DNA of 58,441 bases, filler included, from an uncultured bacterium (GTDB lineage Bacteria > CAZSTA01), in assembly GCA_964609495.1 (NCBI GenBank). It is 2 parts of 2 records of this genome, joined end to end, with 100 filler letters (N's around TTAATTAATTAA, not from the genome) between each part and the next. Parts side by side here need not be neighbours in the genome. Positions count along the whole stretch, not along the records: positions 1 to 29,270 come from CAZSTA010000022.1; 1 more part is not named here. One strand, written 5' to 3'. The stretch's first letter is position 1; the number at the start of each line of letters is the position of its first letter. Below the pieces are notes generated by a model. The model was not told the DNA's origin, did not search any database, and was given only the letters and a program-made list of their open reading frames with translations. Shown in pieces: positions 16,479-24,879 of this stretch. Made by a program: the position numbers and the translations under genes.

Positions 16479-16596
16479 CTAGTGAGATCAAGATATAATT
16501 CCTCCTCACCCTATCCCACAAGGGGAGAGGGGATTCTTGAGAGAGGCGATTCCTCTTATTTCCCCCTCCCTTGACGGGAGGGGTTAGGGGAGGGTG
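16479..16596. repeat. REP/BIME-like two-hairpin element, copy 3
   Basis: Colinear with 10183-10286 (TTCTTGA spacer, TTATTTCCCCCTCCC..GGGAGGGG..GGGGAGGGTG). Confidence 0.85.
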
Positions 16597-16663
16597 TAAA
16601 GGAAACTTTTTAAAAAGGGAGCTTTTTTACCTTGAGTCCTATTTGAAGCAAAAGTTCCCTTTA
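16597..16663. repeat. Palindromic element with conserved loop CTTTTTTACCTTGAGTCCTWTTTGAAGCAAAAG
   Basis: Core nearly identical to 44395-44428; arms GGGAGCTTTT/AAAAGTTCCC. Confidence 0.75.
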
Positions 16664-16694
16664 TTTAAGGTGGGTTCGAGATCTAACAGGAGAG

Positions 16695-16751
16695 AAATCT
16701 TCAATAGCCCGATTAATTCGGCAAAGACCAACGGTCGTTGGAGTATGTCAA
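16695..16751 (+). mobile_element. Orphan IS200/IS605-type right-end hairpin ending in TCAA
   Basis: GGTCGTTGGAGTATGTCAA (16733-16751) is the exact reverse complement of 23407-23425; resembles the hairpin-GAGT..TCAA right-end form. Confidence 0.6.
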
Positions 16752-22131: not shown

Positions 22132-22207
22132 TGGCAGGCCCGGCAGGACTTGAACCCGCAACCGCCGGTTTTGGAGACCGGTGCTCTACCAGTTGAGCTA
22201 CGGACCT
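22132..22207 (-). tRNA. tRNA-Trp(CCA)
   Basis: AGGTCCG acceptor, TAGCTCAACTGGTAGAGC D arm, CCGGT-CTCCAAA-ACCGG anticodon arm, GGTTCAAGTCC T arm, encoded CCA; 76 nt. Confidence 0.97.
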
Positions 22208-22489: not shown

Positions 22490-23266
22490 TTAGGGCGCTG
22501 GAGGGAATAATGGCACATGCAGGACTGTATCCTTCTTGGTGCCTTGAAGAGGAGTTATAACCTCTACTTCTAATACTCCCTCATTGGGATCAGTATTAAC
22601 GACGCTGATCTTACTTCTGGGTACCCTGAGCACACTAGTATCTATGCTCTTAACCTGATCACTTTTGTTGATGGAATAAGTTCCCTCTTCCGGCGTGGGG
22701 GGAAACACCTGCCTACCCTTACTTCCATCCGCATTCATCGTCCATAGCTTTATGTTTACAGTCAGAGGAACATCAGCGAATGAGATAAGCTTATTATCTT
22801 CGGTTAAGAAGTCGAGGACAACTACCGGACCCTGCTGTTCAGTGGGATGCTCTCCCCAAGCGTGCCAATTTACTGTTGCACGTATCCTAGCCAATCCCTT
22901 TATGATCGCTGGTCCTATAGCTTCCATAGCAATATTCTGAGTGGTGGTCTCTCCTGCTGTAACTGTAACAGTTTTACTATAATCCTTATAACCGGTAGTT
23001 TTGGCTTTAAGTACTTGTTCTCCTGTTGGCACTTCAGTTAGATTATAAGTTCCATCATCGGCAGAGTAGGTCTCTTTATTACCCGCTGTTATCTTAACGG
23101 TTGCTAAAGCTGCTCCGCCATTCTTATCAGTCACTTTGCCGGCGACAGTTCCGGTCTTCGCTGGTGGCTGGGGTTGAGGCTTTTCTTCACCGCATCCACT
23201 TAATACAGCAAGCATTACTGAAACTGTGATAAAAAATGCTATTAACGTTAAAGATCTCTTCACCAA
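22490..23266 (-). CDS. Lipoprotein with carboxypeptidase-regulatory-like beta-sandwich
   Basis: Lipobox LSGC, Pro linker, GTVAGKVTD..DGTYNL..VPTG..GY. Confidence 0.75.
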   Translation of the reverse strand: MVKRSLTLIAFFITVSVMLAVLSGCGEEKPQPQPPAKTGTVAGKVTDKNGGAALATVKITAGNKETYSADDGTYNLTEVPTGEQVLKAKTTGYKDYSKTVTVTAGETTTQNIAMEAIGPAIIKGLARIRATVNWHAWGEHPTEQQGPVVVLDFLTEDNKLISFADVPLTVNIKLWTMNADGSKGRQVFPPTPEEGTYSINKSDQVKSIDTSVLRVPRSKISVVNTDPNEGVLEVEVITPLQGTKKDTVLHVPLFPPAP

Positions 23267-23406
23267 AAAACACTCTCCTTTCTTAACTCAACTTCGATAG
23301 CTAGTGATCAAGGGCTATTCACTAGGAGTAAACAACCACGCGTGGGCAGAGCAACTTTCCTATCTATCAAAGTTGGGTTCTAAAGATAATGCTATATCCC
23401 CAACTT

Positions 23407-23517
23407 TTGACATACTCCAACGACCTTTAGTCGTTAGATTCTGGAGTCAAGCAGCGACAGCCACGTCATGTGGTCGAAACGTTACCATGTCCTCAGCTCC
23501 CGGACATTGACGAATGA
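23407..23517 (-). ncRNA. IS200/IS605 right end with TnpB omega-RNA-like scaffold (no tnpB)
   Basis: Minus strand ..GGGAG..GACC..GGC..TTGACTCCAGAATC-TAACGACTAAAGGTCGTTGG-AGTATGTCAA; internal TTGAC is complementary to terminal GTCAA. Confidence 0.6.
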
Positions 23518-24819
23518 TCATTCGGGTATCTGAGCACCTACCCCGCTGACGGCGCCGAAAAGCTTAAGCGCATCTTCCCATAGGTAGCGGTTGCCAAACA
23601 TACTGACCTTAGTTGTCAGCTTGCCCTGCTTGTTCAAACCCACCGCTTCCCGCATCAGGTTGGCAGGCGATTCAGGGTCATAATCTTCTTCCTCGGTATA
23701 TCGGGCACTTAGAAAGCCTCCCAGATATGCTTTGTTGACAGGGAAGCCCTGAGGGATCTCATCTCTGTTGCCCTCGATGCTGGCGAGTTCTAAGTCCTCA
23801 AACTCATCGGCAGAGAGATTCAACTTGGTGTTGCTGTCAGGACTGTATTCCATATCAGACTGCTTGTTCAGGAAGAAAATATTGTTATCCAGTTTTATCC
23901 ATTCATCATTGTTGAAACGGGTATGATCAACACCGGTGAGGATAGAGGCGCCGATAATGTTATGGTGTATGTTGTATTCCATTTTGGTCATTACACGTAC
24001 ACCGTAACCCATATCCATAAAGTCTTTAAGACGGCTCCAGGTGAAGAGTATGGTGTTATTGGCGATCTCCGCACTACCACAGGGTTCATTTTTATCGCCG
24101 CAAGTACCCCAAACCTCTATGGCCGCCATCCGGTTTGAGACGAAGACATTATTGGTTATGGTGATAGTCCCGGTGGGTATGCCGCCCTGGATACCGAATT
24201 TGGCGCTGTTCAGAAAAACGTTGTTGCTGATTGTGATATCGCCTCCTTTGTTACCAGCCGCGATGGATATACATTGCTCAGTAACAGTAGCTTTCTCCCC
24301 CTTGGCTTTCTTGGGGGGCAACAGCAACATACCGGTTTCAACACCTTCCGGCTTGCCTTCAGATGGGGAGTAAGAATTGCGCATACCCATATCAAAGATG
24401 AACCCATCCACTACTGTTCCATCAACCTCTTTGGACAACTTAAGGAGAGCTTTGCGAGCCTTGCCTCCGCTTTCATTGTCGGGTTGGAATAGGGTTGGGT
24501 GGTCGATCACACTACGCTCAGAGAAGTCTGTTGAGTAGCCACCATACATTTTCAGGGGTTTATCAATTTCCAGATAGCCGATGTTGAACGTCCCGCTGTA
24601 TGTCCCTTCCGCAATCAACAACGTGTCTCCTGCCTCGGCCTTTTTAATCGCCTTGTCAATATTCTTCATCGGTTCTTCATCGGTTCCCGGATTTTTGTTA
24701 TTTCCCGTGCTTATGGATACATGGATAGTTTCTGCATAAGCTGTTGGCACGACTAGAACAAAAACCGCTAATGATATGATTATGATCCATCCACCGAATT
24801 TCCTGATATGATCTAGCAT
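23518..24819 (-). CDS. Secreted DUF1565/right-handed beta-helix protein
   Basis: Signal peptide ending AYA; GNNKNPGT..PMKNIDKAI..AEGTY; repeated I.NNVF; ATG 24819 behind AAAGGGGG. Confidence 0.75.
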   Translation of the reverse strand: MLDHIRKFGGWIIIISLAVFVLVVPTAYAETIHVSISTGNNKNPGTDEEPMKNIDKAIKKAEAGDTLLIAEGTYSGTFNIGYLEIDKPLKMYGGYSTDFSERSVIDHPTLFQPDNESGGKARKALLKLSKEVDGTVVDGFIFDMGMRNSYSPSEGKPEGVETGMLLLPPKKAKGEKATVTEQCISIAAGNKGGDITISNNVFLNSAKFGIQGGIPTGTITITNNVFVSNRMAAIEVWGTCGDKNEPCGSAEIANNTILFTWSRLKDFMDMGYGVRVMTKMEYNIHHNIIGASILTGVDHTRFNNDEWIKLDNNIFFLNKQSDMEYSPDSNTKLNLSADEFEDLELASIEGNRDEIPQGFPVNKAYLGGFLSARYTEEEDYDPESPANLMREAVGLNKQGKLTTKVSMFGNRYLWEDALKLFGAVSGVGAQIPE

Positions 24820-24879
24820 TCTATTTCTATCCCCCTTTAAAGTAAATTGATGCCCGAACATACACCGCTGATTAAAAAC

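Follow-up and report, generated by a model that had tools for sequence, protein, structure and literature searches.

A probable solo, decayed right end of an IS608-like element behind a beta-helix gene of an uncultured bacterium

Directly behind a beta-helix gene of an uncultured bacterium lies a short stretch of DNA that resembles the omega-RNA (reRNA) scaffold of a TnpB element, with no tnpB beside it. Does it supply a guide RNA on its own, or is it what is left of a transposon? The initial annotation had preferred the former, a stand-alone guide RNA transcribed with the host gene and loaded in trans by a TnpB or TldR protein, and had kept a decaying insertion-sequence end as its fallback. 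We addressed the question in the window, which here means the whole analysed stretch of 58,441 nucleotides, filler included, composed of contigs C22 and C23 joined by a spacer; the draft assembly amounts to 3.78 Mb in 349 contigs. The reading that we prefer, with a probability of roughly 0.85, is that the locus is the solo decayed right end of an IS608-like IS200/IS605 element, extending on the minus strand from 23407 to about 23486 (at most 23520).

Host genes and architecture of the right end

All features of the locus lie on the minus strand, where the string quoted in the initial annotation was found as written at 23520-23367. The upstream host gene (23518-24861) is a 447-aa ORF for a conserved right-handed beta-helix (DUF1565) protein with its TGA stop at 23520-23518, and the downstream gene (22490-23266) encodes a CarboxypepD_reg-domain protein. 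The beta-helix protein has 1008 homologues at E ≤ 1e-10 among 8000 candidates scored, and the nearest of them (P0002-P0005) are 76-80% identical. Since all 15 homologue C-termini inspected end in ...G(V/A)GAQxxx, as does its own (...GVGAQIPE), the sequences indicate that the host gene is intact, that its stop codon is native, and that transposon-derived DNA begins 3' of the stop. A resemblance, seen by eye, between its last codons and the tnpB region that precedes helix P1 of the family described below (11 of 15 bases) was rejected, as the frames differ and the 15 C-termini are alike.

A genome-wide domain search gave no PF07282 or PF01797 match on C22 or C23, in agreement with the earlier statement that the window holds neither tnpA nor tnpB; the tnpB matches were on C314, C195, C275 and C14, and the tnpA match was on C343. 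The gathering-threshold Rfam scan of the whole window returned a tRNA at 22135-22207 and nothing else, and a permissive scan of 23150-23700 returned snR87 (15.6 bits) and Pseudomonadales-1 (14.5 bits), both at chance level and far below their cut-offs.

The element ends at 23407. Its last ten bases form the right-end tail AGTATGTCAA (23416-23407), whose final four, TCAA (23410-23407), are the IS608-type right cleavage site. Seven of eight tnpB-linked ends of the family carry the same tail, and L025 has the variant AGTACGTCAA. Ten nucleotides inward is the foot of the subterminal hairpin IP_R, CTAACGAC-TAAAG-GTCGTTGG (23437-23417), the recognition hairpin of TnpA. GAAT (23441-23438) occupies the place of the right guide tetranucleotide (G_R), with one base between it and the stem; it is kept in seven of the eight ends, the H. 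pylori sequence has it as TAGAATCCCC, and GAAT is also what we take the G_R of IS608 to be. Further in is TTGAC (23450-23446), a possible pseudoknot partner of the 3'-terminal GTCAA. The retention of this pairing had been claimed before; the pairing is possible, but TTGA and TCAA barely vary in the family alignment, so that covariation speaks neither for it nor against it.

Inward of these elements lie helix 3, formed by GGTAACG (23486-23480) and TGTCGCT (23459-23453), and, inside it, helix 4, the hairpin GACCAC-ATGAC-GTGGC (23475-23460). The sequence AATGTCCGGGAG, as read, begins at 23508, and a local hairpin, ATGTCC-GGGAGCTGA-GGACAT, occupies 23507-23487. On the outer side, the 3' flank AAGTTGGGGATATAGC (23406-23391) is a guide by position only, being the host DNA that follows the insertion site. 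The segment CCCAACTTTGA (23377-23367) is complementary to the start of this flank, and the two form a stem-loop across the element end in the fold; the earlier observation that the putative guide start can pair downstream was thus reproduced, the flank pairing with CCCAACTT.

PMC3201880 describes IS608 as carrying TTAC 19 nt 5' of its left hairpin, TCAA 10 nt 3' of its right hairpin and a four-base guide 5' of each hairpin foot, with about 45-56 nt of the right end sufficing for complex formation. Measured against that description, the locus and the IS608 right end agree in GAAT, in the subterminal hairpin, and in AGTATGTCAA ending with TCAA 10 nt from the foot. The locus shows three features of the IS608 type: a hairpin foot 10 nt before TCAA, GAAT at the G_R position, and several copies in its genome with a common sharp outer boundary. 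The subterminal hairpin and the TCAA cut site of an IS200/IS605 right end without an adjacent tnpB were therefore correctly recognised at the outset. The comparison made then with ISDra2 is loose, the geometry and the tail sequence being those of IS608. Unlike IS608, the locus lacks a left end, tnpA and tnpB. A left end (TTAC, about 19 nt, hairpin) did not appear in the 120 nt inspected upstream, which are the native end of the beta-helix gene, whereas the related full elements have TTAC at their left flank.

The scaffold family and the decay of the window copy

To place the locus in a family, eight tnpB-linked right ends, all from other organisms, were aligned (alignment A1), and a covariance model of 117 positions, R1, was built from them without any sequence of the genome under study. 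RNAalifold on A1 gave 34 pairs in five helices, namely P1, within the final codons of tnpB, a long-range helix of UGGG with CCCA, hairpin P2 and the stem around it, and the TnpA hairpin. Compensatory changes occur at 19 of the 34 pairs among the eight training sequences. When 18 sequences were aligned to R1, 91.6% of cells were paired and 22 of 34 pairs changed on both sides, figures that are favoured by the fitting of the alignment to R1 itself; none of 500 shuffles reached either figure, and shifting the partners by 1-3 columns lowered pairing to 31-52%. The predicted RNA structure of the family is thus well supported. Because TnpA needs only about 45-56 nt of a right end, the inner helices are most readily interpreted as the omega-RNA scaffold of TnpB.

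R1 matched the window at 23407-23520 (-) with 44.1 bits and an E value of 1.7e-11. The match runs through model positions 1-117, and its alignment is confident only over about 23486-23407. The covariance-model check that had been proposed for an omega RNA therefore came out positive with R1, while no Rfam family reached its threshold here; R1 could be reused to annotate such ends, which Rfam misses at this locus. The locus is more than a chance resemblance, because it recurs in the same genome with a sharp 3' boundary, matches R1, and is one of few R1 matches genome-wide. Its assignment to the right end of an IS608-like IS200/IS605 element is firm as far as sequence comparison goes; the helices that it retains would be the 3' two thirds of the omega-RNA scaffold.

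The copy is also degenerate. When the 18 scaffolds were ranked by R1, it tied for the lowest place with a gene-less stub, L029; tnpB-linked copies scored 81.6-132.8 bits, and the gene-less L042, L043, L049 and L050 scored 88.6-108.1 bits. It keeps 25 of the 34 model pairs, the fewest of the aligned rows: two of eight in P1, three of four in the long-range helix, six of seven in the enclosing stem (helix 3), five of six in P2 (helix 4), and nine of nine in the TnpA hairpin (helix 5). The conserved UGGGYUAGG segment lacks about six bases. GAAT, the hairpin and the tail are perfectly kept, and helices 3 and 4 nearly so; judged by these pairs and bases, the side that faces the transposase has survived whole, in contrast to the 5' third of the RNA scaffold. 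A perfect end could reflect some constraint or merely a young deletion. The 6-bp local hairpin at the place of P1 is out of register with the model and of uncertain homology, and L029 likewise has an unrelated hairpin there. That second low-scoring stub (L029 384-505 (-), 44.0 bits) lies on a metagenome contig at the end of a WD40-like reading frame.

In comparison with a TnpB omega RNA, the locus is alike in its match to R1, in helices 3, 4 and 5 with the 3' tail, and in having a flank at the place of the guide. It differs in having no overlapping tnpB, in the loss of P1 and part of the long-range helix, and in that no cognate protein or TTAC-flanked target was found in its assembly.

Over the 3.78-Mb genome, R1 gave seven matches at six loci, one of which is a palindrome matched on both strands. 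The sibling copies are longer and score higher (C96, 97.1 bits; C36, 69 bits; C4, 64.4 bits), and the last 70 nt or so of the window copy recur at 84-86% identity on C96 and C36. All four long copies, on C22, C4, C36 and C96, share a sharp 3' boundary, ...GTATGYCAA, with unrelated DNA beyond it. Upstream of the C96 and C36 copies the reading frames are riddled with stop codons; C4 and C36 show, by eye, a left end following TTTTAC with half of it deleted. The decay of these three copies, in states other than that of the window copy, fits an old invasion that is now extinct. Two of the three are no more than about 670 nt from a contig end.

Shorter relatives of the right end are scattered more widely. 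Hairpins of near-identical sequence occur at other places in the genome, and the 12-mer GGAGTATGTCAA, with at most one mismatch, occurs at 45 places, of which 10 rows (nine loci) have the hairpin context and 35 are unrelated by eye. A mostly perfect palindrome of 40-41 nt, TTGACATACTCC-hairpin-GGAGTATGTCAA, stands alone at C321:1747-1787 and C3:33077-33117 and amounts to the IS608-type tail mirrored on both strands. It is also present in a Chlamydiae MAG (three places), a Synergistaceae MAG (two places) and several viral contigs; other viral copies consist of the hairpin and AGTATGTCAA only. The loci related to the palindrome are L018-L022, L031, L033, L035 and L036. Elsewhere in the window, the spacer between two minus-strand ORFs at 16560-16751 (+) is a stack of short repeats that are very abundant in the genome. 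One unit, a GC-rich hairpin of 37 nt, matches at 163 places on 124 contigs; another matches at 73 places on 56 contigs, including DNA immediately behind the C195 tnpB; the third matches at 23 places on 23 contigs. At its end the stack has a 19-nt copy of the right-end tail, GTCGTTGGAGTATGTCAA, at 16733-16751.

Partners, target and expression weighed against other readings

We then asked what a guide RNA from this locus could work with. The TnpB of L025 was taken as the reference for the cognate type. Four loci of the genome are of tnpB type, and their products are 31-39% identical to the reference: 34% for C14 and for C314, 39% and 30% for the two frameshifted pieces on C275, and 31% for C195, which has an in-frame TGA. 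Three of these loci end in ...GTAGTTCAC or ...GTAGTTGAC, and that on C275 runs off its contig. The search for a tnpB with the same right end, which the initial annotation had suggested, thus found none in the 349-contig draft, the three readable tnpB ends being of other types. The only Y1 tnpA in the assembly, on C343, is truncated. With 349 contigs, the assembly could miss an intact cognate insertion sequence.

The target-adjacent motif was set as TTAC from the left flanks of L027 and L045. The 16-nt flank matched 130 non-self places in the genome with at most three mismatches, and one of these was seen after TTAC, with three mismatches. The proposed check for a TAM-flanked target was therefore negative, as no TTAC-preceded match to AAGTTGGGGATATAGC with fewer than three mismatches exists in the 3.78-Mb assembly. 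The best match of the flank, with one mismatch, is on C35, where a 17-nt identity had a whole-query E of 0.046; it was set aside as chance, since it lies inside a 546-aa ORF and follows TTTGGGAA, not TTAC.

With regard to expression, neither a sigma-70-like promoter nor a terminator-like site (stem and T run) was found in 23100-23800. The stub follows the stop immediately, is on the sense strand and has no terminator-like site before it; it is therefore probably co-transcribed with the beta-helix gene. Small fractions (0.04-0.16) of the words of the stretch occur in four sequencing runs. Contigs from these runs give patchy cover of 22959-23408 and 23839-24113 and leave 23410-23838 uncovered, where missing cover is no finding; the single true RNA-Seq contig spans 23227-23408 at a depth of 2.6, and contigs cannot show RNA ends.

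TnpB is reported to process omega RNA out of longer transcripts, and TldR proteins are nuclease-dead, TnpB-derived repressors whose guide RNAs adjoin the tldR gene and match a promoter. On the stand-alone reading, the beta-helix transcript would include the stub, which after trimming would be taken up in trans by a TnpB or a nuclease-dead TldR and direct it to TTAC followed by AAGTTGGGGATATAGC. The 3' two thirds of the scaffold and the element boundary are indeed intact, but P1 and part of the long-range helix, which belong to the same scaffold, are lost. The genome does encode proteins of the TnpB family, but they are distant from the cognate type and their three readable right ends differ. 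The sense-strand position behind the gene would provide a transcript, but the assembly offers no TTAC-flanked target and the neighbourhood no sigma-70-like promoter. Gene-less derivatives with a full scaffold exist (L042, L043 and L049), and the Meers et al. preprint (10.1101/2023.03.14.532601) proposes trans use of such RNAs. In a real insertion sequence, however, the guide is neighbouring DNA, so that a positional "guide" is expected of any fossil. The idea behind the reading, a TnpB-type scaffold turned to host regulation, is shared with the TldR guide RNAs; unlike them, the locus has no adjacent or cognate gene and no matching target. We therefore consider a stand-alone guide RNA very unlikely, and the 25 of 34 pairs kept, the two of eight in P1, the absence from the draft of a cognate TnpB and of a TTAC-flanked target, the lack of promoter-like and terminator-like sites in 23100-23800, and the lack of an RNA contig over the scaffold leave that claim of the initial annotation unsupported. 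Those of its proposed checks that could be run all went against a stand-alone guide, except the covariance-model match. If the reading were true, the locus would add a natural minimal scaffold, the idea of trans supply having already been published in the same preprint (10.1101/2023.03.14.532601).

A role as an exapted 3'-UTR structure is likewise highly improbable. The hairpins and the stem between the flank and CCCAACTT would then stabilise or end the beta-helix transcript, or insulate it from the downstream lipoprotein-like gene. The position immediately after the native stop and the presence of several stable stems would suit such a role, and the RNA-library contig that covers only 23227-23408 points very weakly the same way, although contigs of this kind do not define RNA ends. 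A terminator-like site was, however, not found in 23100-23800, and the 254-nt intergenic region folds no better than its shuffles (z = -1.63; 13 of 200 shuffles fold equally well). The sibling copies, moreover, are not in comparable positions.

There is a slimmer chance that the stub is a trimmed but working mini-scaffold, a 3'-UTR RNA cut out by a TnpB-family protein encoded in unassembled DNA of this repeat-rich genome and used in trans. Such an RNA would guard its own site or regulate a target absent from the draft. It would be a natural, host-embedded, nuclease-less guide RNA smaller than the normal scaffold of the family.

Least probable of all is that the end is still a live substrate, cut by TnpA in trans and either mobilising host DNA together with a distant left end or taking part in one-ended events: GAAT, the hairpin and AGTATGTCAA are all intact, a right end of about 45-56 nt is enough for complex formation according to PMC3201880, and near-identical hairpins exist at other places in the genome, but no left end lies in the 120 nt upstream, the only tnpA of the assembly is truncated, and nothing indicates rearrangement at the site.

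The solo decayed right end accounts for the locus by a simple history. An IS608-like element would have entered the spacer behind the beta-helix gene, 3' of a TTAC as the rule of its family requires. A later deletion would have removed the left end, tnpA, tnpB and the 5' third of the omega-RNA scaffold, and would have left the end recognised by TnpA (GAAT, hairpin, AGTATGTCAA) with two scaffold helices. The remnant lacks the left end that excision would require, as well as a matching TnpB to act as its RNA-guided partner; it is most likely inert DNA within the spacer or 3'-UTR of a host operon. The fallback of the initial annotation, a decaying insertion-sequence end, fits the degenerate scaffold, the lack of a left end and the decayed sibling copies. 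A gene-less IS200/IS605 fossil of this sort is ordinary, and there is no sign of a free-standing guide-RNA function. Little rides on the locus itself, which records a past IS608-type element in an uncultured lineage, now extinct in the assembly.

The Meers et al. 2023 preprint (10.1101/2023.03.14.532601) describes IS200/IS605 derivatives without genes that encode omega RNAs, and proposes that TnpB uses these in trans. Like the PATE elements of that preprint, the locus is a protein-less IS200/IS605 derivative that keeps scaffold sequence. PATE-like examples of its own family are L042, L043 and L049, each with a TTAC-flanked left end and a full module. PATEs keep both ends and can be mobilised; the locus, in contrast, has a right end only and a damaged scaffold, which makes it a remnant and not a miniature element.

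Related elements in other organisms and IscB-type elements in the same genome

A search for relatives with the 177-nt C4 copy over 61 genomes, including its own, returned its own genome only, together with one weak match (E 0.0085). The 60 other genomes were all kin at the level of "same domain" and none closer, so the source organism appears isolated in the reference set. A scan of public metagenome contigs with a pattern drawn from the conserved portion of the long copies gave seven stretches. Three were from the organism itself (L024, L026 and L028) and carry no independent weight, one was the gene-less stub L029, and two, L025 and L027, were tnpB-linked; the seventh, L023, was discarded as a chance match inside a GC-rich coding stretch without the right-end tail. 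L025 has tnpA and a 382-aa tnpB that carries the module at its 3' end. In L027 a remnant of tnpA is accompanied by a 328-aa tnpB whose frame runs ...NIKIVGASTIGLGDVRP... into the module, and the left end of this locus reads GGTTAC, 19 nt, hairpin. Left ends were found in L027, L042, L043 and L045. The gene-less L042, L043 and L049 (88.6-107 bits with R1) consist of the TTAC-flanked left end, a short spacer and the full module.

When the L027 end was compared with plasmids by blastn, 13 records matched, and in nine the match lies beneath an annotated TnpB gene. Among the hosts are Rhodothermus, Chroococcidiopsis, Trichormus, Geoalkalibacter, Megamonas and Helicobacter pylori. A blastn search of a phage collection gave two records with matches of about 46 nt. 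The tnpA-tnpB element of H. pylori pUM157 ends in GAATCCCCTAGCTTTAGCTATGGGGAGTATGTCAA, or at greater length ...TAGAATCCCCTAGCTTTAGCTATGGGGAGTATGTCAA, and on its left side has TTAC, about 19 nt, and then the same hairpin. Its ten-base tail is identical to that in the window; its hairpin differs, CCCCTAGC...GCTATGGGG versus CTAACGAC...GTCGTTGG in the window. From its organisation and ends we read this element as IS608 itself, the record naming the family only. The end consisting of GAAT, hairpin and AGTATGTCAA, together with the scaffold of about 108 nt, is nearly unchanged across H. pylori, Rhodothermus, cyanobacteria, Geoalkalibacter, Megamonas and a Chlamydiae MAG.

On a cyanobacterial plasmid, L050 1800-1907 holds a full 108-nt module directly after TTAC and without a left end. 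In L046 (1800-1919), an intact element related to L050, TCAA is found just 5' of helix P1. One may speculate that the pair fits an aberrant excision by TnpA, from the left cut site to an internal TCAA.

The genome is also rich in RNA-guided IS200/IS605 elements of the IscB type, which is not the type of the element in the window. Twelve HEARO RNAs (Rfam RF02033, the guide-RNA scaffold of IscB/IsrB) scored above the cut-off with 113-157 bits, along with two weak matches. They lie at C343:1428-1640 (on L012), C17:2948-3161, C3:245-461, C77:8994-9212 and C5:35240-35465 and on C225, C82, C1, C31, C6, C46 and C275, none of them in the window. All 12 begin with GTCAAY, the DNA before it being unrelated, and an ORF of 397-434 aa comes after five of them. 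The only Y1 tnpA (C343, L012 1254-1463) stops after ...GGATATTAT, exactly at the start of the HEARO scaffold (1428-1640), and an IscB-type element seems to have landed in this transposase gene. That scaffold opens with a hairpin, CCCACGAC-TGAAG-GTCGTGGG, which is nearly the same as the right-end hairpin of the window. At C275:4-1748 (-), about 470 nt separate a HEARO scaffold from a frameshifted downstream gene that is TnpB-like and not IscB, an arrangement that may have arisen from nested or adjacent insertions.
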